Source: a virus. From it: a DNA stretch of 64,000 nt. This document shows positions 3 through 35,293 of the stretch, in pieces. How positions within the stretch are numbered: the first letter of the stretch is position 1; every line of letters starts with the position of its first letter. The stretch is taken from positions 32,001-96,000 of IMG/VR virus record IMGVR_UViG_3300031603_000001, one strand, 5' to 3'. The position numbers and the translations under genes were made by a program. The notes under the pieces are model-generated. The model searched no databases. It worked only from the letters and a program-made list of their open reading frames with translations, and was not told the DNA's origin.

Positions 3-3000
3 CCATTAGATCTAGTCAGCTTAGTGCATGGCATGGGTAAGAGCGCTCAGCATTGGGGATTACGAGCACTCGGTACAAGGTCAACTAGTAGTAGTGTGGC
101 AGATTTCTGGATCAAGTTCAGTAGAGCAGAGACTCTTTCTGGATTTCCTAATATCACACCAAGACTGCTTGGTACAACTGCAAACATATTATTACAATCA
201 TTCGACTTAGCTACTCGCACCAAAAAAGGCGGAGCAGGTCCAGCAGATTTCAACGTCATGGCGGGCTTCCTGTCAGGGCAAGCAGGTGTAAACCATGTTA
301 ACATGTGGAATGAAAACGCTATTGGCGATACCCTCTTAGATACACAATTACTCAACGAATTCTACCTGAATAAGCGTGGAGTAATACCGGATACACTGGA
401 CATAAAAGGGCTACCTAATCCTAAGAAGATAGGAATTACCTCAGCATCCGTACTAGACGTCACCGAGGAACTTGAGATCCTAGGCAGCCTACAAAAACAT
501 GTAGACTTCGACGATCCTAATTTCCACAGCATGGGCCGTAATGAACGTTCACATTACCTACAAGGAAAGTTTGGAAAGAAGCCATCTGACGATTTCTTAC
601 ACAACTTACAACTCGCTAAAGACCAACGAGAAACTGTATGGTACGCTGACCGGGAATGGTTACATAGAGCTAAGCTTTTAAAACCAAGAGGACCTGGTGG
701 TAATCGATTCATACGTTATGATGCCCCCACACTTACTCAGCTATCTAAAGGCTTCGATATACATGGTGGCGGAAGTTGGCAGACACAGATAGCGCGGGCA
801 TTAGATTCTAATGGTGCTGACTCAATTAAAGCAGTAGGATACAACGGCAAGACTGTTATACTAGACAGTCTAAAGAAACGACTGATTGATGCTAAACTTA
901 TTGACGGAAATGGTAGACTACAGTTTGAATTTGATGTTAAGGATTTATTAGAGTCACAGATTGAGAAATTAGGCAGTAATACCGGTGGCGATGCCGCTAA
1001 GCACAAAGAACTTCTACAAGCTCTGCTGCGTCAAGTAGATGAAGCTTCTGTAACCAAAGACCATTTTGTACTTCCTAGCATAGGAGGCGTACAAGCTCCT
1101 TACGCTTCAGGAGATCGTGTACTATTCTCAGGATTAATGAAAGACACTCAGGGCACACTGCAGGCTTTCGGCAAGCTTGATAGCATGCGTATTGATTTAA
1201 CAATGGACACCGCTACCTCCAAATACCGTAAGTACCGAAAAGGAAAAGGCGGAATACACGAAGCTGCTATTATAGACATGGGAATAGATTCGGTAGTAGC
1301 TGATATTAAACGTAACGCTATGGAAGTCTCCGGTAGAGTTATGAATACCTGGACCAAGATAGGTACGGCGGGGTTCCAGCAAGCTAACTTCAGAGCAGCA
1401 GCTGGTACCACGACAATGGCATGGGGCAAGCTCCAAAATTCAATGACACTTGTACCGGCTCTTGAACAAGTGTACTCCAAGATAGGTACTTCTGATTTCG
1501 TTAACACATCCTACGCACTTCCCGACTTCTTGAACGTATCAGACAAGTCCCCCTTCAAACTAGACACCTGGTTAAGTAACCTCAGCAAGGGTAACAAAGT
1601 ATTTGCACCCCAAGGAGGAACAGGGAGGGATCTAGTACTACAGACAAAAGGGTTTGGTCTAGGAGAAAGTCCAATATCCTATCAGTCAGCCGTCGACTTA
1701 CTTCAGGAGCTAAAACAAACAGGGCAATTAGGTGTATCAGACGAGGCAGCTGCAGGATGGCTGCGTGGAGAAACTGGCCGAAGAATGGGCCGCAATAGAT
1801 CTCCTGATGCAGTACAAGGTCAAGTACTAATCGGCCAACTATACGTACAGCCGGATGAATTATGGAAAGCTGCGGACTCCTTAGGTGCTCCTTACGTATC
1901 TAACTCAGCGGTATACGTAGATCGCGTTGCCATGAAGTTCATGCGTGGTGATCAGGACGGTGACCTTGCAGCACTGCTAAACATGGGCGGGTTTATTGAT
2001 TCAGAAACGGGACAGATAGGGCCTAAAGGCAGCGCTTCCCGTAATCTTACAGGTGGAATCTCAGTATCAGAAGCAACTGAAAAGATGGCCTTGGCACATT
2101 CATCGTACTTAGCTAAGTGGGAAGAACTAGAACGGCGAAGAAAAGGAATTGGACGAGCAGCCCCGGGTGATGTGTACTTTGCAGGCACAGTGAACCAGGA
2201 TGGTAGAGAGTTATTCCTACATAAAGATCCTACTAAACATCTCACCATGACTGCTAGCCTACGGGAAACACTCCCGGAAGGCCTACTTTCTGATGTTATC
2301 CAGATAGACGATCCTGTACAAACAAGTGTACAGCACCTTACCCAGAAATCCTTTACACCTATAATTGGTGGGTACGTTAAAGGTGCTATCGCCATGGCGT
2401 ATGGAGGAAGGTTAGGACTACTAAACAGATTAGAAGATGAAATAGCAGGATCTCCAGGCGCATTCGACACACTACTCGAGAAGAATAACCTCGGAGGAAT
2501 CTACGGACGTACCTTGACTAGTGGCGCATATCTGAAATCTATGGGCACACTCAATACAGTGCATCCAAACCTATTAAATCAAACTGGACACGAGCTTGTA
2601 GGAAATGCCATGTCAGCTATGATGCAAGAGGGTGGTATAACAAAGATCAACACTAACCCAGTAGCAGGCCTCGTCACGTTGATGTCTCATATGCGTAACA
2701 TCAAAACAGCTATGGGTACTCCTCAATTTGATGAAGCTACTAAATTCCTTGCATATATGGATGATCACCCCGACTTTGAGGGTATGAGTATACTCCATCA
2801 GTTACGAGACCGCCCAGCCTCACAGTACAGCCAAGTAGAGAATGTACAACTTCGGCAGACAGCTTACGAATTAGCCAATGCGTATGGTATAGCAACCAAT
2901 ACACTAGAAGCTACTGCTAAAATAAACCAAGCCCAATTCCTAGAAACAATAGGAGAAAAGAAGAACAAAGGCAAGATTGCTGAAATGCTTGATACTATAC

Positions 3001-3659
3001 ACACTAGTAGGTTTATTGGAGACATGGATAGGCAAGCTGCTAGCGGGCCTACTTCAGAAATACAATCACTAGTTGCAGGTAATGACGGCTTTACCACAGC
3101 CTTTAGATCAACCCTCACTCACTCTATGCGTTCCTTAGGTATGCACAATAATACTACAGAAAACTTAGTAGCAGGCATGATGGGAGGCATAGGTAGCACA
3201 ACAACTATGCGTATGCGCTCGGCTGGTAGAATAATGACAGAGACCCTTAAAGAGAACGTCGGGCGTTTGTTTAATTTCATAGACTCATCAACTGTACGTA
3301 AACTATCCGGACGTATAGGTACTGTTGCTGCAGCACTTACGTTCTTTGATCCAAACACAGGTTCCATGATGATAGGAGAGGGTGAAGGACGTGGCGGAGA
3401 ATACAGTGACATACCATCTGGTAAGGAAGTGATGAGAGCTTTCAAGAACCGCAAGACTGTTAGAACTAAAGAAGCCAACCCCTTCTTGCAAGATAAGCTA
3501 GCACGTCTCTCATTTGCTAACCCTAGAAATGAACGTAGAACTGTCAGAGGGCAACTGGTACCAGAGGCGCCAAAGTATGAATACAACAACCATACACGCA
3601 AATTCAATAAATTTAATATTAGTGACCATCTCCGCAGAGCTGGTGCGATAATGCAATGA
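3..3659 (+). CDS. Giant virion protein (5'-truncated) with putative single-chain two-barrel RNA polymerase domain and a helical tape-measure-like C-terminus
   Basis: The frame is open back to position 3. Motifs in order: GDRVLFSGLMK (1110-1142), RSP (1797-1805), SAVYVDRVAMKFMRGDQDGD (DxDGD at 1950-1964). It lies directly upstream of the baseplate genes. Confidence 0.6.
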   Translation, partial: PLDLVSLVHGMGKSAQHWGLRALGTRSTSSSVADFWIKFSRAETLSGFPNITPRLLGTTANILLQSFDLATRTKKGGAGPADFNVMAGFLSGQAGVNHVNMWNENAIGDTLLDTQLLNEFYLNKRGVIPDTLDIKGLPNPKKIGITSASVLDVTEELEILGSLQKHVDFDDPNFHSMGRNERSHYLQGKFGKKPSDDFLHNLQLAKDQRETVWYADREWLHRAKLLKPRGPGGNRFIRYDAPTLTQLSKGFDIHGGGSWQTQIARALDSNGADSIKAVGYNGKTVILDSLKKRLIDAKLIDGNGRLQFEFDVKDLLESQIEKLGSNTGGDAAKHKELLQALLRQVDEASVTKDHFVLPSIGGVQAPYASGDRVLFSGLMKDTQGTLQAFGKLDSMRIDLTMDTATSKYRKYRKGKGGIHEAAIIDMGIDSVVADIKRNAMEVSGRVMNTWTKIGTAGFQQANFRAAAGTTTMAWGKLQNSMTLVPALEQVYSKIGTSDFVNTSYALPDFLNVSDKSPFKLDTWLSNLSKGNKVFAPQGGTGRDLVLQTKGFGLGESPISYQSAVDLLQELKQTGQLGVSDEAAAGWLRGETGRRMGRNRSPDAVQGQVLIGQLYVQPDELWKAADSLGAPYVSNSAVYVDRVAMKFMRGDQDGDLAALLNMGGFIDSETGQIGPKGSASRNLTGGISVSEATEKMALAHSSYLAKWEELERRRKGIGRAAPGDVYFAGTVNQDGRELFLHKDPTKHLTMTASLRETLPEGLLSDVIQIDDPVQTSVQHLTQKSFTPIIGGYVKGAIAMAYGGRLGLLNRLEDEIAGSPGAFDTLLEKNNLGGIYGRTLTSGAYLKSMGTLNTVHPNLLNQTGHELVGNAMSAMMQEGGITKINTNPVAGLVTLMSHMRNIKTAMGTPQFDEATKFLAYMDDHPDFEGMSILHQLRDRPASQYSQVENVQLRQTAYELANAYGIATNTLEATAKINQAQFLETIGEKKNKGKIAEMLDTIHTSRFIGDMDRQAASGPTSEIQSLVAGNDGFTTAFRSTLTHSMRSLGMHNNTTENLVAGMMGGIGSTTTMRMRSAGRIMTETLKENVGRLFNFIDSSTVRKLSGRIGTVAAALTFFDPNTGSMMIGEGEGRGGEYSDIPSGKEVMRAFKNRKTVRTKEANPFLQDKLARLSFANPRNERRTVRGQLVPEAPKYEYNNHTRKFNKFNISDHLRRAGAIMQ

Positions 3660-3829
3660 TAGTAATTAACCTAGCACTGAAGAATATCCCTTACGAACTC
3701 GATATCCAACAGATACTCGATCACATCAGACTTATACTAATAGAACAATATGGCGTAGACCCAGAGTTCGTCGTCAACGATCATGATCTAGTTAACATAC
3801 TAAGACTTTCCGGATTACAAAATGGCTAA
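3656..3829 (+). CDS. Small hypothetical protein, 57 aa (MIVINLALKNIPYELDIQQILDH...SGLQNG), missing from the ORF track
   Basis: The ATG overlaps the upstream TGA (ATGA). The stop overlaps the next start, and the ORF fills the gap exactly. Confidence 0.7.
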   Translation: MIVINLALKNIPYELDIQQILDHIRLILIEQYGVDPEFVVNDHDLVNILRLSGLQNG

Positions 3830-6800
3830 TCTAAAATACACAGATATACTAGACGGTATCGCTACATTCGAATCTTCTACTACAGCCAGCGGGGCTACTA
3901 AAGTAAGTACACTCACAGGCAAGTACTATGGAATCTATCAAATAGACCGTGCTAACCAGACAAGAGTACTAGGTCTGGACGCTGAGGGCAAATACCTACC
4001 AAGGTACAAAGGATTCGGACTGAACTCTACAGTAGCGGCTGATTTAGCTAATCGAATACAAGTCGGCACAACCAATGCCACAGCATTAACTACAAATGAA
4101 CAAAGACTTGTATGGCTAATATGGCATACAATAGAAGCAGTATATCAACTGTATAAATTTGATGCACGTAAGTGGTCAACAGATGTCGACATAGATGGAC
4201 GCAGAATAGCTTTATCTAACATAAGTCCAGCAACAGCAGCACGTGCTAACGACGCTTTGTGGGATATACTCTGCAGTATTACAGCACGTTGTCCCGCGGG
4301 TGGGCACAAAACAGGCCCTACACATCTGCAGACTATCAAACAGCTACTAGGAGACCCATTAGATCCAAACAAAGCAGGTCCTGGCGCAGTTGGTAAATAT
4401 GGGCCGTCTGTGTTTAGATACATGGTCACAGCAAGGTACCCAATAGCACCTAATAATAACGGCTATGGCCAGTTATTAGGGTACACGAAGAGGCACAGTA
4501 AAGGTGCATTAAAAGTGTCTGATCCGGCTACAGAATCTAAAGCTGACTGGAGTGTATCAAGTCTGGACATTTACCAAACATTAGCAAAAGAACTAACAGA
4601 GTTAAACGACACTGTAGGTCTATTCTCAGCTTTTGAATTCGGGTACAAATTCATTAACAAACTATTCAGAGTTGATCTAGCGACTCTTAACAACGTGCAC
4701 GGTGAGCAAGCCAGTGAAGTGGCATATGACACACGCACGCTAGAAGGTATATACTCGTACATACCTACTATAGAAATGACTAAGAGTACACCAGGGCTTC
4801 CACTGTATATAGGCGACTTGGGTTTCATAACTCCTCCAACAGCTATACGGTACAACGCGGCCGGGCAGTCCTACGCTTTTGAAGCACTACGCACCAGTAG
4901 CAACCCTATTGTACCTGTTAGCACGCAAAGACCAAGTATATCAATCACCCTGTACCTACATGGACAGGATGAAGTAAACAATAAACTACGCCCATTACTC
5001 GCTATGGCTAAACGTACCCCTTTTACACAAGTACGAAGTGGGATACTGTACAACATGTTAGTAGACCGCATACTTGCACAAGAACTCGAAGATATAGAGG
5101 ATAAAGCACAAGTACCTATCCCTGTTATAATCGATAACGTTTCTTTCCATACAGTCCCAGGGTACCCTGACGCTGTGCAGGTGTTCTTAACACTACGCTT
5201 CTTCAATGTATTCCCATACGGAATGATGTATTCTTATAATCCACAGACTCCCGATGAGATATCGGAAACCGTTAATTACAAAATCAATGAAGTCCTACGC
5301 CACTCTAGGGCCTTCAACCCCATCAGCTCTGCTGGGGAAACATTCGTTTCAGCCGACGGCTCACGAGTTAAGCTGCCCAAAGAGCAGCTCCCTCAATCCT
5401 TGACTGCTAATCTACACGATTCCCCTGAGTTTATACATTTCTACAGAGAACAACTAGCTGATTACACAACTCCTATGAGTTACGTACAATTGCCCGCTAA
5501 ATGGCCTGCCTATATACCAGACGGCGCGGCACAGACTACCCTCACATACAACACTATTACTAAACTAAATAGTCCATTCGTTGACGCACTCGAGTGGGTG
5601 CAAGGGCAGAAGGATGAAATATCTAGAGTCACTAGGATATTTGACTGGCTATACACTGACCCCAGAGGGCTGAAAACCTATAAGAATAGTAGTGACCCTG
5701 CTGCAATTAAAATACTGTTCTGGGAAAAGCTAGCAAGTCTTATTGATGCTACCCATAACCTAAAGGAGGGCGTCAGATTAATAAGATCAGAAGCCAATAG
5801 ACTAGTACTAGACGTACTAGACTCTACGGATTCACAAGACTTTACCTCAGCCGATTACCAACTATTTGCAGAAGAACTTGTCAACAACCCCTTCGTAGGC
5901 ATACCGACTGATGAAGTACAACACACTAGCACTTTACACGATGTGTTCGAAGCAGCCGTAGGCGACAAGGTAGAGAATATAACTACTGCCACCTACAAAC
6001 GCTGGCTAGAGAACCTTATAAACAGGGACAGTCCTATTCTCGCTACAGTAGAGGATCTACTTACTGTCAAAGTCAAAGCCTTATTTGGCAGCACTGAGAC
6101 AGCACCACGTACTGTGGCATTAACTTCCCAAAAGACGCCTGGCCCTACAAACACAGAGCTCGCGTCTGTACTGACGTCTATTAGCATATCGTACGGAAAC
6201 AAACTAGTCCCGATAGACATATTACAATACAAAACACCAACGTTTCAACATACTGGTATGGGACAGTTCGGTATGAGTATGATTATACAAACAAATGACC
6301 CAGGTATGATATCCACCATTAATGATATTAGACTAACACAAGCCGCCTTATCTAATCCTAATGAGATGGGAGGAGGCCGAGATCGTATAACTATATCGGA
6401 CCCACTACTTAACTCGTTTGGTTTACAGTATTTCAGTATTCGTAATACTCAAATCAAAACTATGACAGGCGCTGTGGGTTGGTACGAAATAGCAATTGAT
6501 ACATTACATAATCCAAAGACATTACACATGGCTGAGGACATTAAATCACTTACCACTAGCGCTAAAGCAGTGGTGCGTAGGTTGACCCCTTTGTTCTTTC
6601 CAGCAGAAATTGATATTGATCATCTTAGAGGACCAGACGGAGGAGTAACTCAGCAACTAGATGCCGGAAGGCTCTCTGTAGTTGGGACAGAAGGCTGGGT
6701 GTATGCTGACCATGAGTATCTAACTACTGATTACCAATTCACGATAGCCGACAGCCTGGTAGCAGTTTCCCCAGGTCAAAGTGATAATGACATTCAAATT

Positions 6801-7139
6801 ACTAAATCATTAAATGCGATACTGGAGCCTATACGTTCCGTACTTTTAGACTGGTCTACTGTGCTAGTGGCTGGAGGGGCAACTCACTTCAAAGATATGA
6901 TTAAGATAATGGCCAAACGTTACATGACATTCTCCGCCCAATCTGCAGTATTATGGATGGCGCAGCATACCAGCGCTACTCTCCCGGACGCTAAGTACAT
7001 AGACTTAACAGACCCAGAAGTCTCCGGGGTATCCACTGCCACGGCAGTTGCACTACATGTGCATCGCAAAACATTTATGCACACACTCTTTACGAACGCG
7101 CAGTTCAATAAGCAAATGAAGATTGCTAAACAACCTTAA
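3822..7139 (+). CDS. Virion structural protein with N-terminal lysozyme/lytic transglycosylase-like domain
   Basis: N-terminal IATFES...GKYYGIYQI fits the lysozyme-superfamily ES...GxYQ pattern. It sits between the giant protein and the hub. Confidence 0.55.
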   Translation: MANLKYTDILDGIATFESSTTASGATKVSTLTGKYYGIYQIDRANQTRVLGLDAEGKYLPRYKGFGLNSTVAADLANRIQVGTTNATALTTNEQRLVWLIWHTIEAVYQLYKFDARKWSTDVDIDGRRIALSNISPATAARANDALWDILCSITARCPAGGHKTGPTHLQTIKQLLGDPLDPNKAGPGAVGKYGPSVFRYMVTARYPIAPNNNGYGQLLGYTKRHSKGALKVSDPATESKADWSVSSLDIYQTLAKELTELNDTVGLFSAFEFGYKFINKLFRVDLATLNNVHGEQASEVAYDTRTLEGIYSYIPTIEMTKSTPGLPLYIGDLGFITPPTAIRYNAAGQSYAFEALRTSSNPIVPVSTQRPSISITLYLHGQDEVNNKLRPLLAMAKRTPFTQVRSGILYNMLVDRILAQELEDIEDKAQVPIPVIIDNVSFHTVPGYPDAVQVFLTLRFFNVFPYGMMYSYNPQTPDEISETVNYKINEVLRHSRAFNPISSAGETFVSADGSRVKLPKEQLPQSLTANLHDSPEFIHFYREQLADYTTPMSYVQLPAKWPAYIPDGAAQTTLTYNTITKLNSPFVDALEWVQGQKDEISRVTRIFDWLYTDPRGLKTYKNSSDPAAIKILFWEKLASLIDATHNLKEGVRLIRSEANRLVLDVLDSTDSQDFTSADYQLFAEELVNNPFVGIPTDEVQHTSTLHDVFEAAVGDKVENITTATYKRWLENLINRDSPILATVEDLLTVKVKALFGSTETAPRTVALTSQKTPGPTNTELASVLTSISISYGNKLVPIDILQYKTPTFQHTGMGQFGMSMIIQTNDPGMISTINDIRLTQAALSNPNEMGGGRDRITISDPLLNSFGLQYFSIRNTQIKTMTGAVGWYEIAIDTLHNPKTLHMAEDIKSLTTSAKAVVRRLTPLFFPAEIDIDHLRGPDGGVTQQLDAGRLSVVGTEGWVYADHEYLTTDYQFTIADSLVAVSPGQSDNDIQITKSLNAILEPIRSVLLDWSTVLVAGGATHFKDMIKIMAKRYMTFSAQSAVLWMAQHTSATLPDAKYIDLTDPEVSGVSTATAVALHVHRKTFMHTLFTNAQFNKQMKIAKQP

Positions 7140-7149
7140 GTAGGTAAAT

Positions 7150-10100
7150 ATGGTAGACATACAACCACGATATCAAAATCCAGCTACAGAAGGAGACGGC
7201 GCTAACCCTGCCACAGCTCCGCCGCAAAGAACTTGGTTAAACAACTTTAATACAGAAGACTATACGTCATGGCTTAAAGAAGTTGCAGATAGTGTACGTA
7301 ATAACTACCCTGATTTTGATTTCAGAGAAGATGTTGTAGCAACATACAAAAGTGGAGGCACTCCTATTGACTCCCATAAACTACTGCACCCGGCGTGGTA
7401 TCTAGCCTCACGATCTTACACAGGGCCATTGGATCAAGTTAAAACATACCTTAATAAACTACGACTTTACTACCAAGGAACAATTGGCGCGTTATTCAGT
7501 ACATCCGCCGCAGCTGCACTTCACGACCGAAAGGATGTCCTTAGGAAATGGCTAGCGGACGAAGCTGGCAAAGGACTTCAAGATGAATTCCACGCATTAC
7601 TTGCTACAGGACTTAAGGCAGGCAAAAGTATCGTAACAGAGAGCCCGTTCGCTAGAGGCACTACTCCTGTAGATTACTTCAACCCTAATGTATTTGACTC
7701 AATCGATACAATTCTTGATGACGAACACCCGTTCAATAAATCAGGGGATGGCATAGCCGGTGAGATAGATGTCACACTTACTACCAGCCAGTTGTTCAAC
7801 ATAACACTCGCCTATAAGCTAGAAACATACTACGCTGTACAGGCTGTACTAGCAAGTAGCTTAAACGTAGGCAGCGTGTCCATCACTGTCGCAGGGACGA
7901 ATGCAACACTGCATACATCAGACAATCTTTACAAAGCAATACCTGATTACAAAGCACTTTTCACACTTATCAATAATCTATCCAGTAATCCTGCTAATCA
8001 GGCCACTACGATAGCTTCACTAGAAAGCATAACTGCTACTACAGACAGTAAGAATGCGTTAAATACACCATTAGGCTCTGTCTTAAGAGATCTACATCTA
8101 GAGATCACAGATTTATGCACAAACGGCACCATGGAGGCTGCCATACAGCCATTAGGGTTCCTGGACATAGACGCAGCTACCCTGAATGTGGAGCTAGATA
8201 AGCAACTAGCTCTAATGAAGAACAATGACTGGGAAGACAACTTTATTAAAGCATTTCCAACGTACAGATTGTTTATTATAGAAGAGGACACTAATCAATT
8301 ACGACTCTTTGATGATTTCTATTCATACGACGCTGTTCAATCTATTACAGTTGTTGAATCGAAGCATGCGGCTAGTTCAACAGCTATACTTAAGCTCTCT
8401 AACGTTACAGGCAGACTCAGCACAGCAGGTATAGAAGAGTTTCTATACGACCATGATAATCCGGCCCCTCTGTCCTCAATACAACTACGTTCCGGTACAA
8501 AGATTATGATCAGAATGGGATACGGGCCCGACTACCGTAACCTGCCAGTATCCTTCCTTGGGACAATAACAGAAGTAGTACCAGGTCCTGTACTTGAAAT
8601 ACAAGCACAAAGCTTTGGGGCAGAACTTTTACATGAATTCACTACAGAATTAGAAGGTACAGCAGATGCCCATGACTCTATGGGACAGGTCGTCATGACT
8701 GTACTAGACCAAACTCCCGGGTTAAAACACTTCGGTAGATGGCAGTTACAGCAGAACCAACTAGACGAAAAAACTACATCAGGCAAGACACTCAGTGATG
8801 CGTATAAAGTGGCCAACTTTGCCTACCTGACGGGTATGCTGATACAGGACTTCAATTTAGGGGCCCTGGACATGATAGGGATAAACCCATCACAATCCGG
8901 AGGGTTGGTAGCGGCTGCAGATTTTATCAATGCATGGCAGCAGAACACAAACGCCCATGCTATGCTACTCAACTTCGGTAATGATCTATATCAAAACATA
9001 TATGTAAACAATAAGAACCCTAGATTATACGGGTTCCTGCGTTTTGTTTCCCAACTAGAGGTAGATGGAGGCGGTAAATTAAACTGGTATATAGACAACC
9101 AAAGTACATGGTCTGCCTTGTGGGAACTAGCTACACACCACGGTGATTACATTGTAAGACCTCTTATATATAATGAGGGTATGTCTTTATTCTCAGGTAA
9201 CCAGGTACGTAACACTTTATACTTTGGACCACGTGAAGGAACATACAAAGCATTCGATACGCCCTACCACCTAAAAAGTGATGATGAAATAAGCGAAGGC
9301 TTCGCTACATTATATAGAGGATACACAGATGCAGAGCGTGCGGACTTGCCAGCACAGGCTGCTATTAATGCGTACAAGCCGGGCACCACGGCCAACGCCT
9401 TGTTCACAGATAAATCGTACCCACACACATACATTCAAATACCAGGTAAAGGCAAGCACCATGACCCTGAGTGCACCTGTTTGTTACCGGGACCTAGTAA
9501 CCCTCTTCCAAGTGAAGTAGAGGCTATGACTCTTATTGCAAAACTCACAAAAGGTAATCTAGCAGACGCAGAGATACACAGGATACGAGATCTTAATCGT
9601 GTACAGAACGATGTGTTCTCTTTACCAAGAGCAATAGGATCCGGAGTAGCAGAATCTATTGATCTATTGCTTGGAAGACCAAGTGAACTAGAATACGAAG
9701 GTAACATGATCTTCGAAATCATGAAAGGCTATGCCCCTAAACTGGCAGAGTTTGGCAAAGCACACCTAGAGTCTATGATGGACGTAGAGCAAGGGAGGGC
9801 AACCGCTACCACCATTGATACTCCTCTTGACTTATTTGTAGCAGCTACACCTATCGGTAACCTTAATATGTTCATGCATATAATCGCCGGGGGCAACCCC
9901 GGACGCTTTACACAAGGCTCCCACCCAACAGTTGGTTATATTCTAGAGAACCAAGTTGAGGTAGCGTTTGAGACTAAAGAGGCTTATCTAGAACAGTGGT
10001 ACACAGCGTTACGTCAAGACATTCCTCTCATTATAGCCAACAGTACTGCCCTTGGGATCACTCCTAGTTTATCAGAGCACCCAGGTCTGAGTCATCTAAA

Positions 10101-11247
10101 GAACTTGGCTGACGAAACAGGGGATTCTAATTATCAAGCGTACAGACCGGTAGTTGAACATCACATGGCCACCAGTCACACCAACATTATGCAGAATGAA
10201 ATCATTGCAACAGCAGAGCCTATTAGCAATAAAGTTACAGTGTATTACCCAGAATCAAATGCATTGTCTGATATTAAATTAAGCCCAAGTGAGTGGCCTA
10301 AAGACGCAGACCATAGACGCTCGTCAGTACTATCTTATGAGATAGATAACAATTACATTAGAGAGTACGTTAGCTTCCAGCGTAACGCTTCCGAAGATAT
10401 AAACGTATCCTTTACAGCATTAACAGAGAACCAAACCGGAGATGCGAGAAACGCTTTACCTATAGCTCAGCGTTTGGCGGACACCATCTTGTTAAATCAA
10501 GTAAAGCCTATGTATCAAGGCAATCTCGTACTCACAGGAGACCCCACCATTAAACCATGGCACGTGGTACACATTGTTGACATGGTTAATCAAATGGATG
10601 GGGTGATAGAGGTAGAGCAAGTTGTACACAATTATGACGCACACACAGGCTTCACTACCACCATAACTCCTAATTTGTACTGTACGCTTCGTAGCAACAA
10701 AGCTATGATTGATACCCAACTTATGAACTACCATGCACAAGCCTCATCCTTTATTAGATGGACACAATCAATAGTGAAAGGTGCGTGGACAGGCCTAAAC
10801 GTAGCGGGTGCCGGCTTCAGTGCTGCAGGAGTTTACGGAGCAGTGACCTCTGCGGGGTCAACCGCAGCCACAGCCGCAGCTACAGGAACAGCTGCAGCCA
10901 CAGGAGCAGTAGGTATCCAAGCCGGAGCCGCTGCTGCAGGGGGCGCAGTGTTCTGGCCAGTAGTTGTAGCAGCACTTGCTATAGGTTCAGCAACTTTCTG
11001 GGATAAATATCAAACAATGAAAATTACCCAATACGTTAACTCTACATTATTACACCATGGTAATGCTCCAATAGTAATGGCGTACCTCCACTACAGGAAC
11101 CGCCCGTACATAGCAGGGTTAGAAGGGGTAACCTCATTGAATAAAGATTTAGCAACAATCGTCTATGACAAACTAGACAAAGACCCAACCAATGCCGACG
11201 TACGAATGGGAGCACTGGGGCAGGTCGATAACCTAACCGGGAACTAA
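7150..11247 (+). CDS. Baseplate hub protein (T4 gp27/Mu gp44-like) with large insertions
   Basis: IRMGYG...FLGTITEV...LEIQAQSFG and C-terminal LVLTGDPTIKPWHVVHIVD...GVIEVEQVVHNYDAHTGFTTTITP are typical hub motifs. It precedes spike, gp25 and J. Confidence 0.65.
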   Translation: MVDIQPRYQNPATEGDGANPATAPPQRTWLNNFNTEDYTSWLKEVADSVRNNYPDFDFREDVVATYKSGGTPIDSHKLLHPAWYLASRSYTGPLDQVKTYLNKLRLYYQGTIGALFSTSAAAALHDRKDVLRKWLADEAGKGLQDEFHALLATGLKAGKSIVTESPFARGTTPVDYFNPNVFDSIDTILDDEHPFNKSGDGIAGEIDVTLTTSQLFNITLAYKLETYYAVQAVLASSLNVGSVSITVAGTNATLHTSDNLYKAIPDYKALFTLINNLSSNPANQATTIASLESITATTDSKNALNTPLGSVLRDLHLEITDLCTNGTMEAAIQPLGFLDIDAATLNVELDKQLALMKNNDWEDNFIKAFPTYRLFIIEEDTNQLRLFDDFYSYDAVQSITVVESKHAASSTAILKLSNVTGRLSTAGIEEFLYDHDNPAPLSSIQLRSGTKIMIRMGYGPDYRNLPVSFLGTITEVVPGPVLEIQAQSFGAELLHEFTTELEGTADAHDSMGQVVMTVLDQTPGLKHFGRWQLQQNQLDEKTTSGKTLSDAYKVANFAYLTGMLIQDFNLGALDMIGINPSQSGGLVAAADFINAWQQNTNAHAMLLNFGNDLYQNIYVNNKNPRLYGFLRFVSQLEVDGGGKLNWYIDNQSTWSALWELATHHGDYIVRPLIYNEGMSLFSGNQVRNTLYFGPREGTYKAFDTPYHLKSDDEISEGFATLYRGYTDAERADLPAQAAINAYKPGTTANALFTDKSYPHTYIQIPGKGKHHDPECTCLLPGPSNPLPSEVEAMTLIAKLTKGNLADAEIHRIRDLNRVQNDVFSLPRAIGSGVAESIDLLLGRPSELEYEGNMIFEIMKGYAPKLAEFGKAHLESMMDVEQGRATATTIDTPLDLFVAATPIGNLNMFMHIIAGGNPGRFTQGSHPTVGYILENQVEVAFETKEAYLEQWYTALRQDIPLIIANSTALGITPSLSEHPGLSHLKNLADETGDSNYQAYRPVVEHHMATSHTNIMQNEIIATAEPISNKVTVYYPESNALSDIKLSPSEWPKDADHRRSSVLSYEIDNNYIREYVSFQRNASEDINVSFTALTENQTGDARNALPIAQRLADTILLNQVKPMYQGNLVLTGDPTIKPWHVVHIVDMVNQMDGVIEVEQVVHNYDAHTGFTTTITPNLYCTLRSNKAMIDTQLMNYHAQASSFIRWTQSIVKGAWTGLNVAGAGFSAAGVYGAVTSAGSTAATAAATGTAAATGAVGIQAGAAAAGGAVFWPVVVAALAIGSATFWDKYQTMKITQYVNSTLLHHGNAPIVMAYLHYRNRPYIAGLEGVTSLNKDLATIVYDKLDKDPTNADVRMGALGQVDNLTGN

Positions 11248-12995: not shown

Positions 12996-14138
12996 ATGAT
13001 ACCATCAATACAAACCCTAAAAGACCGCATAATTATACAGTTTCAAAATGGAGGGTTCCCCAAAGCAGGAGAACCTAACACTCCTGAAACTATGCTAGTT
13101 GATATGCTAGCACAGCAACAATATGAAGGGTATGTACAGCTGGACAGGCAGCTTATGAAAGCTGACCCAAGCAACGCGGTAGGCATCCAGTTAGATGAAG
13201 CAGGCGAATTTCGTGGCATACCTCGTCGTACGGCACAAGTGGCCATCGACATAACCCGCAGTAACGTATACTTCTTCCTAACTGATGGAGCTACAGTGCC
13301 TTTGACAGTTGGTAGAAACACCAATATTGCCACAGAGAAGGGCATCACATACTTAACCACTGAGCCTATTACCATTACAGCATCTGGCTACGAAAGCAGA
13401 CAATACGTAAGTGTACGTGCCGCAGGAGAAGGCCCTAACTACAACATCCAGGGCGGAGAACTCACCACACACGGTGTAGCCAATGCTCAGCTAAGAGTTA
13501 ACAACTTCCTACCTATCGAGACCGGCGCATCTACTGAGACAGACGAAGAGTATAGACCACGTGTACTGCAGAGTGACGCAATCGTCCGCGGAGGAAACTA
13601 CCCCGCACTAGAAGCACAGCTTCGTAGTATTCCAAATGTAGCTGATCTACGTATAATACCATTAAAATATGGTATAGGAACAGTGGGTATTTTCGTTGAA
13701 AGTACCAACCCTATAACAGGTCCGGCTCTACTAGCACAAGTGCAAGCAGAAGCGGAAGTAGCAGTGGACGCAGGTACACGCATCTTCGTTGAGTGGCCAG
13801 AACATTTATTCTTTCAAGCAGAGCCTGAGCTCGTACTGCAAGCCGGAACAACACTGGCTGGTGTACAGGCCCAAGTCAAAACTACCATGGTATCTTATAT
13901 CAATGGCTTAAAGCGTGGGGAAACTTTAGTATACAAAGCTCTTGAATCTCAAATCATTCAAGTTTCCGGAGTACTAGATGTGAGCTTCCGCTCAATACAA
14001 CGTGGAGTATACGACTTAGGTAAGCAGGACGTAACATACCTACAAGATATAAGCCCATCAAACCTACCAGCATCTTCTTTACAGAAGTGGGTAACAAGCG
14101 CAGAGCGTCTCACGGTCTGTGTAGCAGGGACTAACTAA
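12996..14138 (+). CDS. Baseplate J-like protein
   Basis: AVGIQLDEAGEFRGIPRR, YLTTEPITI, VRAAGEGPNYNI, GASTETDEEYRPR and VGIFV are hallmark Baseplate_J segments. Confidence 0.85.
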   Translation: MIPSIQTLKDRIIIQFQNGGFPKAGEPNTPETMLVDMLAQQQYEGYVQLDRQLMKADPSNAVGIQLDEAGEFRGIPRRTAQVAIDITRSNVYFFLTDGATVPLTVGRNTNIATEKGITYLTTEPITITASGYESRQYVSVRAAGEGPNYNIQGGELTTHGVANAQLRVNNFLPIETGASTETDEEYRPRVLQSDAIVRGGNYPALEAQLRSIPNVADLRIIPLKYGIGTVGIFVESTNPITGPALLAQVQAEAEVAVDAGTRIFVEWPEHLFFQAEPELVLQAGTTLAGVQAQVKTTMVSYINGLKRGETLVYKALESQIIQVSGVLDVSFRSIQRGVYDLGKQDVTYLQDISPSNLPASSLQKWVTSAERLTVCVAGTN

Positions 14139-27281: not shown

Positions 27282-29056
27282 TGAATGAATTCAACTTTCA
27301 AGAAACAAACCTACAAGCAGACGGCTTCTCAGTAGAGTGGACCCTTCCAAGTGGTTATGAGTACGAGCACCATCTTAAACAATGGACCGTTACTGTATAC
27401 ACAGGAGAGACAGGTGCAGATACTGTCATAGCAGCTGCTGTACTTAGCGCTACTCACACAACTTTAAGTATAACAGTGGCACCATACACTGAGTATAATA
27501 TAGGACTTACCGCAGATTTCGAAGAAGAGATACGTGATGAGGATCCGTATGACGGCAGTAGCTCTTCCGAAACATACGCCTGGTCTTCTGACGAGGTACT
27601 CATTACATTCTCTACCTTGGATAGTATTGTAGCACCTCTCGTTGCAGTAGACGGGGACTGGCCTAACTACTCAGATTATATGGCTGGTAATCTCAACCTT
27701 AAGGTTACGCTACCAGACGACTATGTATCAAGTTCAATAACTAACTATGTTATACAGTACAGATCTGTATCAAATGGAAACGTATGGACTACTCTATCAT
27801 TCTTCTACCGTGATGACTTACTGGCATCCTTCCCGGATCCAATCCAGCTAGCACTAACAGACATGGACCCGGCTATGTCTCATGAATTTCGTGCAAGGAT
27901 GACTACAGCCCAGGGGGTATCCCAAGGAGCAGTGCTCACTATATACCAACCATCTCGAAAGACCTCAGCTATGAAGTCCTTTCCATATGTGTTAGCAATA
28001 CCAACATCCTTAGCCACACCAAGCTCTGTCTTTATAGGTAACCTACCTGCAGGGACTGTGTACAACCCGTACGAATCCTCGACACTACCTGGTGATCTGC
28101 AAGAATGGATCTACAAAGGTGATGCTCTATACGATTCAGTAGCAGTAAAGCTGTACCATAGATCGGTTGCAGCACAACCTTCACGCTACTACCCAAATGT
28201 AGTAGCCAACCCTACAATAGTGAATAGCCCATTACTGCATGCCGGTGGATCTTTCAGTACAGCAGATTTCGAAGGGCGATGGTGGGACCTAAGTACTGCA
28301 GAAGTAGTACGTTGTTACGCACCGGTAGTTAACTTCGCATTCAACGGAGCCAACCATCCATTCATACCAGTCAACTCTGTGATGCCTACAGAGGGTAGCT
28401 GGGATTGGCCAACGGCCCTACTTGATTATGAGTGGGCAGAGGAGATCGGCGACATCGCTTCTCCAGAAGACCACGCAGTGATAGGTATTTGGCAGTACGG
28501 GTATAAGGATACCCCTATGACAGGTGTACATTACGTAGACAATGTTGCTACCGAACTAGTAGGAAGTGTTCATGAACAGTATGTAAGATACCTAAGCGGT
28601 ATGTCTACCGCGGCTATCGATTACAAAGTGTATGTCTTCATCAAACATGACAACCTTTTAACAGATGTGTTCAAATTAATAGAGGAAGATGCCACCATCC
28701 ACACCCTATCAGAAGAGGCTGCTGACATAACATTAAATGGAGAACAGGGCAAGCTGTTCAGTGCTACACTTAACGCATCACCTAGGGTAAACAATGGAAC
28801 ATTCAGCATCGAAATGGACATCCAATCTCAACAATTCAGCGTGGAAGATGCGAGCTCGCATTCCTTCGGAAACTTCTCCTGGCCGCAGGATATCCTACAC
28901 GTACCGTTCAACAATCATAATGGACCATTCTATATGGACTCCGGGGCAACGATTACAGTTGTCGCTCCGGCTAGTCCCTACTCGGACGCATCGTCTCAAG
29001 CAATGATAATTGAATTTGAACTCACTAACCCTTACCCACAGCCAGTATTAGCATGA
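27281..29056 (+). CDS. Tail protein with fibronectin type III-like domains
   Basis: FSVEWTLP...WTVTVY...VAPYTEYNIGLTA and YVIQYRSV...WT...MDPAMSHEFRARM match FN3 patterns. Confidence 0.55.
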   Translation: MNEFNFQETNLQADGFSVEWTLPSGYEYEHHLKQWTVTVYTGETGADTVIAAAVLSATHTTLSITVAPYTEYNIGLTADFEEEIRDEDPYDGSSSSETYAWSSDEVLITFSTLDSIVAPLVAVDGDWPNYSDYMAGNLNLKVTLPDDYVSSSITNYVIQYRSVSNGNVWTTLSFFYRDDLLASFPDPIQLALTDMDPAMSHEFRARMTTAQGVSQGAVLTIYQPSRKTSAMKSFPYVLAIPTSLATPSSVFIGNLPAGTVYNPYESSTLPGDLQEWIYKGDALYDSVAVKLYHRSVAAQPSRYYPNVVANPTIVNSPLLHAGGSFSTADFEGRWWDLSTAEVVRCYAPVVNFAFNGANHPFIPVNSVMPTEGSWDWPTALLDYEWAEEIGDIASPEDHAVIGIWQYGYKDTPMTGVHYVDNVATELVGSVHEQYVRYLSGMSTAAIDYKVYVFIKHDNLLTDVFKLIEEDATIHTLSEEAADITLNGEQGKLFSATLNASPRVNNGTFSIEMDIQSQQFSVEDASSHSFGNFSWPQDILHVPFNNHNGPFYMDSGATITVVAPASPYSDASSQAMIIEFELTNPYPQPVLA

Positions 29057-31122
29057 CAATAGTAACTACTACATCACCAGCAACAGGCCTTCGCCTACTC
29101 TCAACTATACAGCGTGAAAGTATTAGCACTGCATCCGCGCAGAGCGATTCTAATACCGTTGCAGCTGAGCACGTAATTGCAACGCTAACCTTATCAGGTA
29201 TAGACACCACTGGAGGTTTTGGAGGATCATATCCCCCTATCGCAGCAGGAACACAACGTACTGTTAGTCTCATGCATAACGGAACTGAAGTATCAGTAGA
29301 AGTATACACAGGTAACATATACCTAGCCGCAGTACCTGCAGCAGAGGTCTTAAATGTACCACCTGCAGACTGGCCCTCTCCTATTGTACGAGCAGGTAAT
29401 AACGCAGCGGCTCCTGTAACATATCCCACTAGATTACCTGTAAGTAATAAAGGAATAGTAGGATGGCTAGAACAGGTACACAATTACCCGACCACTTCCA
29501 TCACAGTCACAACCGGGGTGGCCACCCTTACTAATGTACCAGTATCCTTCGAAGGATCCAACGTAGTAGACGATTACGTTATACTTATCCAGCAAATAGA
29601 TACTGACGGTACAGTAGATGACATTAAATTACTCACTGACCTAGTCACTGATGTACAATATGATTTACATACATACTCAGGAAGTTATCCTTCCGGTATC
29701 ACACCTTTTAGTCTGGCAAGCACGTACGCACCATTGACGGCGCTTGACGCGGACGCCTTAGCTGCACTAGAGACAGCTTACCTAGACTCACGTATCAGAG
29801 CCATTCCACGGAATCTAGATGACCTTGACTATACAACCCTGGCCGACTACGGTCCAGAGTTTAGATTATTTCCAGTAGATGAAGATGACCAGCGCGCGAC
29901 ACTAGAACTACGCGGTTGGTACTTTAATGCTGTGGATCGGAACGGCGCACCAATCGGGACGGTCCCACACAGGTTTAAAGCTACTGCACAGTTACAGAAA
30001 TGGAACGGCGTTGACGCCTTTGCTGATGTAGCAGGACAGACAGTTGTCATTAATGCCACGACCCCGTCCCAGGTACGCCAAGTTTCTTTCGGAGATCTAG
30101 ATCCAGCAGAAGTATACCGAATACACATTATAACTGCAGCCAAAGGTAACACTACAGACGGTGATGGTGATGACGATTACGCATACCATATACCAAGCAA
30201 CACAGGTACAGCTTACACACAAGCTAATGCTGAGCTGGCGATTACTAACCTGTTCTCAGATGTATCAGCAGTTATATCACAAGCAGGCGCTAAATCTTTA
30301 GACTCACCTGCTTTTAGATTACTAGAACGTGTTGGAGCAAACAACACCAGCTACACTATTGCACCTAATGCTACAGACCCTGCTAAGTTTGACCTTAGCT
30401 TTACAGTAAGCGGGCTATCATCAGTCAGTACTTTGACTATTACGTCCGGTACAAACACAGATACATCAGATGTTTCAGCAGTGTCAGAGAAGACTGTTGT
30501 CTTTACAGCACTCACAGAGGCTGAGATTGAAAGCAATTGGAATTTCACTGCAGCATATGGAACATACAATATACAATTCGCCTACACTATAGGCGCAGAT
30601 TCTATAGGGTCCCTTGAGGCTACAGCTGACGGAGTGTTCTCCTTGAGTAACACTGCAGGGGTGACCTCTATATCCATGCTCAATAGTCTGCCGGCAGTAT
30701 ACAGTACCAAGACTATCACTTTAGCAGGTAAGCTCACGGCCAGTAAGGTTCAGTACAGCCAAACATCCACTAGGGATTTGTCATACAATCTACCTACAGG
30801 GCAGATAATCCAAGCCTTATCAATAGAAACAGAAGAGTACAGCCCCTTCGGACCGAACTATATTCAATACAGTATCGTAGCAAACGATATTGAGTATCCT
30901 ATTACTCCGCTAAACCAGGACGGAACCTGGCCTAAGGTATACCATTTTAATAGCACAGTACCTGAAGAGGATAGAGCTGTTATGGTAGGCCAAGGTTTTA
31001 TCGACACAGACGTAGTAGGGTCGTACACAATCAGAATAGGGCTAAGCAGGCCCGCAGGATCCTTATTCACCAGTCCCTTAGTAACAGGGATAGGTACTAT
31101 GGAAATTAGGACGGACAGCTAA
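29053..31122 (+). CDS. Tail/structural protein
   Basis: 689-aa coupled ORF, Thr/Ala-rich beta composition, FN3-like GDLDPAEVYRIHI segment. Confidence 0.5.
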   Translation: MTIVTTTSPATGLRLLSTIQRESISTASAQSDSNTVAAEHVIATLTLSGIDTTGGFGGSYPPIAAGTQRTVSLMHNGTEVSVEVYTGNIYLAAVPAAEVLNVPPADWPSPIVRAGNNAAAPVTYPTRLPVSNKGIVGWLEQVHNYPTTSITVTTGVATLTNVPVSFEGSNVVDDYVILIQQIDTDGTVDDIKLLTDLVTDVQYDLHTYSGSYPSGITPFSLASTYAPLTALDADALAALETAYLDSRIRAIPRNLDDLDYTTLADYGPEFRLFPVDEDDQRATLELRGWYFNAVDRNGAPIGTVPHRFKATAQLQKWNGVDAFADVAGQTVVINATTPSQVRQVSFGDLDPAEVYRIHIITAAKGNTTDGDGDDDYAYHIPSNTGTAYTQANAELAITNLFSDVSAVISQAGAKSLDSPAFRLLERVGANNTSYTIAPNATDPAKFDLSFTVSGLSSVSTLTITSGTNTDTSDVSAVSEKTVVFTALTEAEIESNWNFTAAYGTYNIQFAYTIGADSIGSLEATADGVFSLSNTAGVTSISMLNSLPAVYSTKTITLAGKLTASKVQYSQTSTRDLSYNLPTGQIIQALSIETEEYSPFGPNYIQYSIVANDIEYPITPLNQDGTWPKVYHFNSTVPEEDRAVMVGQGFIDTDVVGSYTIRIGLSRPAGSLFTSPLVTGIGTMEIRTDS

Positions 31123-32936
31123 TGCCTCGTATAGAACAAAAACTACGTACATTCGTTAAGAATTATATAGCAGACAACCAACGCTTGCCTACTCAACGTG
31201 AGATCAAGCAGGCATTAGAAAAGCCATTCCAATTCACAACACGTCCACTGCTTCCAAAAGTGAATGCCACTTCGGATGCAGCAGCTGTAAAACAAACCCT
31301 TACCGGGTTACTGCAGGACACAAACGATATCATTGAACTACTAAGAGAGTACGATGATGACATGGATCAACTGACACGGAGTTTAACTAAGGAAAAAGAA
31401 GAGTTAGGTACTAAGTCAAGTGAGATCATGGATGTCCTTCAGTCTTTATCAGACGCAGAAGAAGCAGTGAGTCTAGTGTATGCCGGGCTACCTTCACCTG
31501 CTGGATGCTCTACTAACATTAATGTGTCTGCAACTGATGTCAGCCTAGACCACAACCTTACAGAACTCACAGGATGGACAGCGGATGCCACCCCTATCAG
31601 TTCCAATAAGATTTTAAGTGAACAAGTAATTACAGATCCTATGAAGCTGGCTGAACAGGGTGTATTTAAAGCCTCTGTACGCAGTAATGAAGCAGTGTGG
31701 ACTGGGGTAGAGCTGTTTATTAACTTCCCAATTTACTCCGACCCTGACATCCCGAACGCGGACCCATTTCAAGACATCAGAGCCGTTGAAATTAAGGGTA
31801 CCCCTGCTATGCTATCATTCGGAACAGCAGATCCTGAGACTGAAGTATGGGAATGGTCAGATCCTATAGAATTTGATGGAGCAATAACTTACTACGTAAA
31901 TGAACATACAAGCAACATGCGCGTACGCGTATGGGTACAAGGTACTGAGTCACATATTACTATCAACTCAATGAAATGGTTAGTAGGAGAGTATGCCCCA
32001 CGTGGTACCTACGTCAGTATGCCTTTACTTCTACAATCCCATGGTGATTTATCAGCAGACCTGCCCTATAGAGGCAACTATCTACTAGATGTACGCAGCT
32101 TCCTTCCAGAAGAAACCAACATGACTGTAGAGTACTGCCCCCTATCAGCAGGGGATCTGTTTACATATTACCGAGCAGACATCGGAGGCGCGCTGTTGAA
32201 TAACTCCGCTCTGAACTACTTACCAGTAGAAGACGCCCGTATGCCTCTGCCGATAGGATACTCTGATGTATTGCATGAGAATACACTACGGTACAATGGA
32301 GACCCAACACCAACCTTCGTAGGTGTAGGAAATGATATAGACATCTCATTAATAAGTGAGACACCGGCATGGGTACAGACTTCTGCAGAACGTTCCAACG
32401 GCGGACGTGACATGTGGGAGACACACTTGGTTGTACAAGATGCCGACGCGTCCACTATCACCTTAGGGGAACTCGCAGACTATTATGTCATTAAGCGAAT
32501 GACAGGATCAGGGCAAGCCCTTTATAAAGGTGAAGGAACTCACACCTTAACACCTGGGATTTACAAAATTGTATTTAGTATTTCAGCAGACTCTTCAGAG
32601 TTAGGACCTACTGCTACTCCTTCTAGTCCCGAAGTCGCAGGCATGACCATCGACACAGTAGATAGTATTAGTATGCAAGCATTCCCGATACCGTTCACTC
32701 CTATAGATAACCCTATCACAGTGACCACTCCGCTTACTGCATATAGATTAGCGTCAGGTGCACTGACATACCAACATATTGAAGGCCTTGAGTACAAACT
32801 TGCCTCACGGTCTCCCCTCACAACAGCTGTACCGGTAGCCGTTATCTTACGTGTGACGATGTCCACAGATAACCCAGGGGTAACCCCATTGGTACGTAGA
32901 GTACGTCTTATGGCAACTACAGATATAAAGGTTTAA
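31122..32936 (+). CDS. Structural protein with N-terminal helical/coiled-coil module
   Basis: 604 aa, TAATG coupling, coiled coil DMDQLTRSLTKEKEEL followed by beta domains. Confidence 0.5.
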   Translation: MPRIEQKLRTFVKNYIADNQRLPTQREIKQALEKPFQFTTRPLLPKVNATSDAAAVKQTLTGLLQDTNDIIELLREYDDDMDQLTRSLTKEKEELGTKSSEIMDVLQSLSDAEEAVSLVYAGLPSPAGCSTNINVSATDVSLDHNLTELTGWTADATPISSNKILSEQVITDPMKLAEQGVFKASVRSNEAVWTGVELFINFPIYSDPDIPNADPFQDIRAVEIKGTPAMLSFGTADPETEVWEWSDPIEFDGAITYYVNEHTSNMRVRVWVQGTESHITINSMKWLVGEYAPRGTYVSMPLLLQSHGDLSADLPYRGNYLLDVRSFLPEETNMTVEYCPLSAGDLFTYYRADIGGALLNNSALNYLPVEDARMPLPIGYSDVLHENTLRYNGDPTPTFVGVGNDIDISLISETPAWVQTSAERSNGGRDMWETHLVVQDADASTITLGELADYYVIKRMTGSGQALYKGEGTHTLTPGIYKIVFSISADSSELGPTATPSSPEVAGMTIDTVDSISMQAFPIPFTPIDNPITVTTPLTAYRLASGALTYQHIEGLEYKLASRSPLTTAVPVAVILRVTMSTDNPGVTPLVRRVRLMATTDIKV

Positions 32937-32937
32937 C

Positions 32938-33192
32938 ATGCCAAACACTAAGACACATGAAGTAGCACCCGGCATGCCACTGTCGGCATATGATTTCAAT
33001 ATCATGTTTGCCGAAGTTGTAGCTGATTGCTTAGAGATATTTACCACAGTGATACCTACCCAGGCTAACCCGGGAGTAGGGCCTCTTGCTTACATAGAAG
33101 ATCTAGCAGAGCTCACGAATACAACAGCATTCCTCACAGAATCTACTACAGATACAGAGGGTGATCATACTACCAATTGGAGATTGATTTAA
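32938..33192 (+). CDS. Small hypothetical structural-operon protein
   Basis: 84 aa, coupled on both sides. Confidence 0.55.
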   Translation: MPNTKTHEVAPGMPLSAYDFNIMFAEVVADCLEIFTTVIPTQANPGVGPLAYIEDLAELTNTTAFLTESTTDTEGDHTTNWRLI

Positions 33193-34235: not shown

Positions 34236-34246
34236 GGTAATTACTT

Positions 34247-34600
34247 ATGACAGCTCCAACATTAGATTCCCTTGATGGGAGAATCACCTTACTTACTGGT
34301 AAGGTAAACGCAATGCAAATCCAGTTTGATGGATTAGAAGAAGCACTTCGTGCTGTATTCGCATCCAAGACTGAGCTTGCCTCTGTTAACAACGCATTGT
34401 TATCGCAGATTACTAGTATAGGCACGCAAGTGTCGGAACTAACCGAACGTTACGCAACGATCGTAAGCCCAACGGCTACTAAGTTCTATCTCTCCGAAGC
34501 TGACATGAATGAATTACAAGAGGTAATACGCACCTGGCGGGCGCTGCTAACAGAAGTACAAAACGTCGTAGCAAACGCTGTGACTTCCCAAGCGAGATAA
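34247..34600 (+). CDS. Coiled-coil hypothetical protein
   Basis: 117 aa with clear heptad periodicity. Confidence 0.6.
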   Translation: MTAPTLDSLDGRITLLTGKVNAMQIQFDGLEEALRAVFASKTELASVNNALLSQITSIGTQVSELTERYATIVSPTATKFYLSEADMNELQEVIRTWRALLTEVQNVVANAVTSQAR

Positions 34601-34603
34601 ACA

Positions 34604-35284: not shown

Positions 35285-35293
35285 GATATTAGA

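Follow-up and report, generated by a model that had tools for sequence, protein, structure and literature searches.

Analysis of a 64,000-nucleotide stretch of phage DNA (the window), comprising bases 32001-96000 of the 197,958-bp IMG/VR record IMGVR_UViG_3300031603_000001, leads us to propose that the giant protein encoded at its left end, P0002, includes a candidate RNA polymerase (RNAP) that would be carried in the virion. The record is rated complete and derives from an uncultured phage. We lean towards the interpretation that P0002 is virion-associated and that its residues ~900-2350 form a predicted, very divergent single-chain two-barrel (cell-type) RNAP. The gene occupies genome positions 27653-35659 and encodes 2,668 amino acids (aa); it starts 4,348 bases 5' of the first base of the window, which therefore truncates its 5' end. 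A first-pass annotation of the window had proposed an RNAP on the strength of three strings, GDRVLFSGLMK, RSP and DQDGD, and had called for recovery of the full open reading frame (ORF). The strings are all present, in that order and within one ORF, and the complete P0002 sequence was obtained; adding 1457 to the numbering of that annotation, which counts from a GTG at window position 24, gives full-length P0002 numbering.

Relatives of P0002 were sought in an exhaustive phmmer search of 1.84 billion representatives using its last 1,188 residues as the query. Twelve proteins were matched, including six full-length relatives (P0004 and P0006-P0010; 2,612-2,793 aa) and P0005, a fragment truncated by the end of its contig, for which reason we discount it as a naturally split form. 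A further family member, L003, comes from IMG/VR, where three scans turned up two loci and one of these was new; a word-indexed protein search matched P0004 alone, and a metagenome scan for homologues found none. Since further scans yielded no more members the family is rare. The family alignment contains nine sequences, with pairwise identities of 18-57%.

The strongest evidence lies in an NRxP...DxDGD segment in the C-terminal half of P0002. Residues R2049, D2100, D2102 and D2104 are invariant in eight full-length relatives and one fragment in spite of the low identities, the arginine lies within NRxP at a constant 47-49 residues from the aspartates in all members, and the proline of [RK]xP is kept in seven of the eight full-length members. 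The motif itself reads DQDGD in six sequences, DFDGD in two and DFDRD in one, and P0008 and P0009, both distant members, carry the canonical ADFDGD. Conservation of the DQDGD aspartates was the point on which the first-pass annotation had staked its proposal beforehand, and all three are conserved among the homologues; the RxP...DxDGD site of beta-prime type that it described is thus upheld by the invariant NRxP and aspartate positions and by the canonical form in distant relatives. As a sequence pattern, the NRxP-to-DxDGD arrangement is that of a beta-prime-type barrel, in which the three aspartates would hold the catalytic Mg2+. The order of motifs in the candidate double-psi beta-barrel (DPBB-A) is xxNL, KGxGxxES, NRxP, PDEL, DPxxMKF and [GA]D[QF]DGD. 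The 30-aa interval at DxDGD ranks fifth for conservation across P0002, and the intervals 944-973, 1276-1305, 1996-2025, 2043-2072, 2084-2113 and 2228-2257 are all among the top 16. In the phmmer search the two most distant relatives match best over query 496-645, corresponding to P0002 1976-2125, which is the NRxP...DxDGD segment.

Motifs of this kind are easily found by chance, and we therefore examined their background in this genome. The pattern [RK]xPx{20,100}DxDxD, used by Chaban et al. as a filter for two-barrel RNAPs (PMC10770324 supplement), is matched by the P0002 family and also by 8 of the 271 ORFs of this genome, which shows it to be loose; D.D.D occurs in 15 ORFs and D.DGD in four. 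At these frequencies chance would be enough to produce the three strings by themselves, whereas the conservation of the arginine and three aspartates, together with their fixed spacing, places the beta-prime-type site above it. The low specificity of the filter is illustrated by a 470-aa ORF beside the major head protein gene (genome 6969-8381; L005:6969-8381), which has no family match and contains SDFDGDA with RVP 68 residues upstream, probably a chance match. Other metal-binding motifs were considered for the P0002 loop and rejected: position 6 is L, T or I, which does not fit the calcium loop DxDxDG, and the HAD motif DxDx[TV] and the metallophosphatase motif GDxxDRG do not fit either.

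Profile comparisons point to the same segment. In local hhalign comparisons, P0002 1960-2270 aligns with a profile of 81 bacterial beta-prime barrels (P 0.0041, probability 8%), and with the gp96 family (P 0.026) and gp64 (P 0.03), all in register at the motif; in the extended alignment NRxP falls on NRAPTLH, xxNL on RQNLLGKR and DPxxMKF on HPLVCAA. Beta-prime scores of this level are reached only by P0002 tiles that hold this segment (27, versus 11-19.5 elsewhere), and the P0002 score exceeds those of all 40 of 40 column shuffles. In language-model features the nearest named clusters to P0002 1990-2270 are those of the PF05183 RNA-dependent RNA polymerases (RdRPs), at 0.88 and 0.85; these values are below the 0.9 threshold and the proximity is thus a lead only. 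HMMER gives no match of P0002 to PF05183, RNA_pol_Rpb1 or RNA_pol_Rpb2 in Pfam.

The partner barrel is less clear. The first-pass annotation took GDRVLFSGLMK for the beta-type motif, with arginine replacing the first lysine; only G1827 of this string is invariant in the family, and this lack of conservation leads us to discard it as a beta-type motif and to regard it as probably a chance resemblance. Better candidates, judged from conserved sequence strings, lie upstream at residues 951-968, 1238-1247 and 1281-1290, outside the window. The interval 944-973 is the most conserved of the whole protein, and residues 949-973 (VLPLGALNNFGREKYQFAAGRVLNP) align without gaps to yeast Rpb2 755-779 with 7 of 25 positions identical, including R766, Y769 and Q770; in a structure-based alignment this Rpb2 element is named the duplex-binding helix before barrel B (PMC10770324). 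The candidate motifs are P951...R960..Y963-Q964..G968, then K1238...K1247(G), and then GxKFGGSRNE. Both lysines are invariant and K1247 reads KG in P0008-P0010, where the conserved barrel-B strand of gp96, gp64, QDE-1 and beta reads xKGxV (PMC10770324), and G1281-x-K-F-G-G-S-R-N-E1290 resembles the beta string FGGQRFGEME that is located after barrel B. In their sequence along the chain and their approximate spacing, these resemblances fit a beta-then-beta-prime layout with ~700 residues between barrels. We note that the beta-like matches were made by eye and would not be significant singly or in a blind search.

P0002 also contains a set of motifs of the DEDDh exonuclease type, in the same chain as the polymerase-like region. 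The residues D576, T577, E578, D704, H849 and D854 (H849-x4-D854) are invariant in seven sequences, and the strings FDTEY, FDxPIL and HxAxFD resemble those of DnaQ, with ExoI, ExoII and ExoIII in order. Compared with Escherichia coli DnaQ by hhalign, P0002 shows no significant similarity (E 0.13); ExoI and ExoII are in register in that alignment and ExoIII is out of register. The region has no Pfam match. We know of no two-barrel RNAP that bears a DEDDh exonuclease domain. A composite architecture, in which a virion-delivered two-barrel polymerase of beta-then-beta-prime layout, with ~700 residues between its barrels, carries a covalent DEDDh 3'-5' exonuclease, seems to us rather improbable as a whole. 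Such an enzyme could be a proofreading RNA polymerase or a 3'-end-processing nuclease on a cell-type core, or it could, by analogy with archaeal PolD, be a two-barrel core that acts on DNA at genome entry.

Several other segments of P0002 are conserved. One of them, YLTQKxxTGxIGxYxK, may correspond to the bridge helix, judging from its distance to the DxDGD loop; in gp66 the bridge helix lies ~170 aa past the catalytic motif (bioRxiv 10.1101/2020.03.07.982082). The protein has a single, conserved N-terminal hydrophobic segment, and it ends in a C-terminal module that is also found at the end of small metagenomic proteins of 130-431 aa (P0012-P0015). This sharing suggests a portable targeting or tail-binding module, and in P0002 it is possibly a module for virion incorporation or tail binding. 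The coordinates of these features and of neighbouring genes are collected in Table 1.

Table 1. Features of P0002 and of the surrounding tail module; positions are those of the window unless marked as genome or L002.
Feature	P0002 residues	Position	Strand	Remarks
P0002, C-terminal part		3..3659	+	1,218 codons; ORF open at 5' window edge
DEDDh exonuclease motif set	560-860	L002:13330-14232		Outside window
GDRVLFSGLMK	1820-1830	1110..1142	+	Residues 363-373 in first-pass numbering; unconserved; probably no catalytic motif
Candidate beta-prime-type barrel (DPBB-A)	1965-2125	1545..2027	+	Conservation, hhalign, language-model features
RSP	R2049-S-P2051	1797..1805	+	Residues 592-594 in first-pass numbering; R invariant; P in all members except one
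DQDGD	D2100-Q-D-G-D2104	1950..1964	+	Residues 643-647 in first-pass numbering; putative Mg2+-binding catalytic loop
YLTQKxxTGxIGxYxK segment	2220-2260	2310..2432	+	Q2231 and G2239 invariant
C-terminal module, ~150 aa		3210..3659	+	Hydrophobic stretch, then FDPNxGS...GxGGExYDxPS...RNRK...P..P..Y...RR
Major head protein		genome 8471-9814		Upstream of P0002
Tail sheath, 913 aa		genome 12869-15610		Upstream of P0002
P0003, 2,486 aa		genome 20203-27663 (L002:4203-11663)		Directly before P0002; small ORFs between sheath and P0003
57-aa ORF		3656..3829	+	Overlaps P0002 stop codon; position kept (55-66 aa) in five related loci
1,105-aa and 1,365-aa proteins		3822-11247		After 57-aa ORF; followed by two smaller proteins
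Baseplate J		12996-14138		Downstream of P0002

The location of the gene agrees with the earlier suggestion that it sits where a tape measure or ejection protein is expected. A tail sheath gene upstream and a baseplate J gene downstream indicate a contractile-tailed phage with P0002 in the tape-measure/ejection slot, and the order of a giant gene, a P0002 homologue, a ~57-aa ORF, one or more giant genes and baseplate J is repeated in five other loci. P0002 has no peptidase or tape-measure family match in Pfam or PHROG and no recognisable tape-measure part, and the neighbouring P0003 may be the tail ruler instead. Pfam Intein_splicing identifies an intein with C...HNT boundaries in P0003 (E 2e-8), and another segment of the protein is a nuclease of the Cas4/PD-(D/E)XK type that matches PHROG 1706 (E 4e-14). 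At 41-43% identity to its homologues in L003 and L004, P0003 is better conserved than P0002. The 1,105-aa and 1,365-aa proteins correspond to a single protein of 2,417-2,443 aa in related phages (L003, L004 and L104), and each of the two has a match to the giant PHROG 20474 (annotation 'endolysin').

Of the proposal that P0002 is an injected virion RNAP, the beta-prime-type site, the position in the tail module and a published precedent (PMC10770324) speak in its favour, and the string GDRVLFSGLMK does not. A number of results weigh against it. When the motif and everything downstream are deleted the upstream part loses its beta-prime match, although against gp64 the NRxP register is still chosen (P 0.19), and since the signal vanishes in this way it rests on ~23 columns at the very motif that prompted the search; hhalign probabilities are low throughout, at best the 8% given above. 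P0002 itself matches nothing in Pfam, PHROG, PDB sequences or cultured phages; neither the whole protein nor its family has a polymerase match in Pfam, PHROG, PDB sequences or INPHARED (tblastn), and profiles of three motif regions have none among PDB sequences. Support for the second barrel is lacking both in hhalign comparisons of regions 1190-1320, 1780-1880, 900-1330 and 880-1010 with beta, gp96, gp64 and gp66 and in HMMER profiles of the beta-like motif regions, and the putative barrels are ~700 residues apart, far beyond the separation in known single-chain phage enzymes. AlphaFold2 models have low mean predicted local distance difference test (pLDDT) scores, 40.6 for residues 1190-2370 and 52.4 for 1915-2345, with the DxDGD part below 50 in both, and the DFDRD of one family member departs from DxDGD. 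The helical C-terminus invoked by the first-pass annotation appears only in such low-confidence models, and Foldseek PDB, VIA-align wide and Atlas searches, which gave only helical or noise matches, are uninformative on the fold.

P0002 could instead be a giant tape-measure-like or ejection protein with the DEDDh exonuclease as its real enzymatic cargo, in which case DxDGD would bind metal for some unrelated enzyme activity or hold a cation for structural reasons. The absence of HMMER polymerase matches in Pfam, PHROGs or PDB, the low confidence of both structural models, the chance occurrence of D.DGD and [RK]xP...DxDxD in several ORFs of this genome and the loss of profile signal upon removal of the motif all favour this explanation, yet it does not account for the fixed NRxP-to-DxDGD spacing, for the in-register alignment of its flanks to three RNAP families, for ADFDGD in distant members or for RdRP clusters being nearest by features, and the loop is unlike the calcium, HAD and metallophosphatase motifs; we think it unlikely, if far from negligible. 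That the module is instead a degenerate relic of a two-barrel RNAP, whose role in the ejection machinery is now just structural or DNA-binding, would explain the extreme sequence divergence, the DFDRD variant and the failure of any second-barrel motif to reach significance. However, invariance of the three aspartates and the arginine across 18-57% identity indicates selection on the catalytic site, and crAss gp66 is active with DFDID, showing the glycine of the motif to be dispensable, so that a relic is very unlikely.

A role in DNA synthesis was also considered, and P0002 as the replicative DNA polymerase was set aside because the phage already encodes a family A enzyme. A proofreading palm-type polymerase, similar to family B, would have an N-terminal 3'-5' exonuclease and would use GDQDGD as its motif C, in the manner of YGDTDS. 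The exonuclease of P0002 does precede the aspartate motif, and its ExoII string FDxPIL resembles FDxPY, the exonuclease motif of family B, but ExoIII is H-x4-D (DEDDh) rather than Y-x3-D, the aspartate motif is 1,245 residues past ExoIII, strings corresponding to motif A or motif B are absent, as is a Pfam match to DNA_pol_B, and the family A polymerase of this phage has an exonuclease of its own; we give this alternative hardly any credence. Among the explanations weighed, a two-barrel RNAP is in our judgment the best, with a confidence somewhat above even.

Other genes of this phage are those for a family A DNA polymerase, DnaG primase, RecD2 helicase, a clamp-loader-like ATPase and ribonucleotide reductase, and no Pfam RNAP domain was found in the genome. 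The family A DNA polymerase (1,030 aa; genome 95054-98146, minus strand; L099:1054-4146) carries a uracil-DNA-glycosylase-superfamily domain at its N-terminus and, in the same chain, a 3'-5' exonuclease. A 256-aa protein in the replication block (window 62287-63057, minus strand) has a weak match to Sigma70_r2 (E 2.5e-4, below the Pfam cut-off) and may be a phage sigma factor for the host RNAP. Elsewhere, outside the window, lies the gene for P0016 (1,046 aa; genome 164409-167549, minus strand; L100:1409-4549), which has no family match. Its G376-Q-x-R379...K389-G390 and K589-Y-P591-x30-D622-S-D-G-D626 are invariant in five homologues at 30-41% identity, and hhalign aligns it with the beta-prime barrel at the motif only (P 0.022). 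In these motifs P0016 resembles the small two-barrel RNAPs of the QDE-1/YonO/gp64 type, which consist of a single chain, and it is a candidate non-virion polymerase; its case is no better proven than that of P0002. One homologue, P0017, is on a 195,140-bp contig labelled Acinetobacter sp. by NCBI; the contig is probably the genome of a related phage, and its label offers a clue to the host.

If P0002 is a virion RNAP, its course during infection might be as follows. The protein would be built into the particle via its N-terminal hydrophobic segment, its C-terminal module or both, would leave through the tail at infection, and would transcribe the first phage genes on the entering DNA, where its exonuclease might trim the 3' ends of RNA or DNA. 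Later gene classes would be read by the host RNAP with the phage sigma-like protein, and perhaps also by P0016, in parallel with the Thermus phage P23-45. If correct, this would mean that tail-injected cell-type RNAPs are not peculiar to one group of Thermus siphoviruses and the crAss-like phages and are also found in large contractile-tailed phages, in a version whose domains are ordered differently and that bears an exonuclease. The two-barrel polymerase superfamily would gain a very divergent branch, and there would be a testable model for a host-independent start of transcription in such phages.

In the literature that could be searched, an RNAP fused to a tail tape measure is known only from P23-45, whose gp96 (also present in P74-26, G20c and TSP4) is a virion two-barrel RNAP of this kind (PMC10770324). 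Like P0002, gp96 is a giant protein whose gene takes the tape-measure position in the tail module; it has an RxP...DFDGD site and no detectable overall similarity to other RNAPs, and its best extended alignments are in the same register; similarity between the two is not significant at the P value given above. In gp96 the polymerase forms the N-terminus of a tape measure of 5,002 aa that also has membrane and metallopeptidase domains, and the tail of the phage is long and non-contractile. In P0002, which comes from a contractile-tailed phage, the polymerase-like part lies in the C-terminal half of the 2,668 aa and follows a DEDDh exonuclease; its putative barrels are ~700 residues apart, and we could find no peptidase. 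P23-45 has a second, small phage RNAP, for which P0016 is the candidate in this phage.

The virion RNAPs of phi14:2 (gp66) and other crAss-like phages provide a second comparison (bioRxiv 10.1101/2020.03.07.982082; PDB 6VR4, cited in PMC10770324). The gp66 protein is packaged in the virion, is ~2,200 aa long and has a single-chain two-barrel core with the non-canonical DFDID, and P0002 is likened to it as a putative virion protein; in both, the function of most of the chain is unassigned and the gene adjoins those of other giant virion proteins. The gp66 protein differs in belonging to the podovirus-like Crassvirales and in lacking an exonuclease domain, and hhalign detects no profile similarity between gp66 and P0002 (E 0.64).

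Motif order and rough spacing also agree with those of cellular beta/beta-prime (Rpb2/Rpb1), including natural beta-beta-prime fusions, the shared order being IPF..N..R..YQ.A.GK, KG, FGG.R..E, an interval of ~400-700 aa, ..NL..G, NRxP and ADFDGD. The best hhalign score of P0002 is to the cellular beta-prime barrel, and statistical support is confined to that site, the beta-like matches having been made by eye. The QDE-1/PF05183 RdRPs and the YonO-type enzymes, the latter compared by description, are likewise single-chain two-barrel proteins with R-x-P....G and DxDGD, and QDE-1/PF05183 provides the nearest named language-model clusters, albeit below 0.9 and without an HMMER match. Taken with these comparisons, P0002 is probably a variant of the kind of virion-delivered polymerase represented by P23-45 gp96 and crAss gp66.

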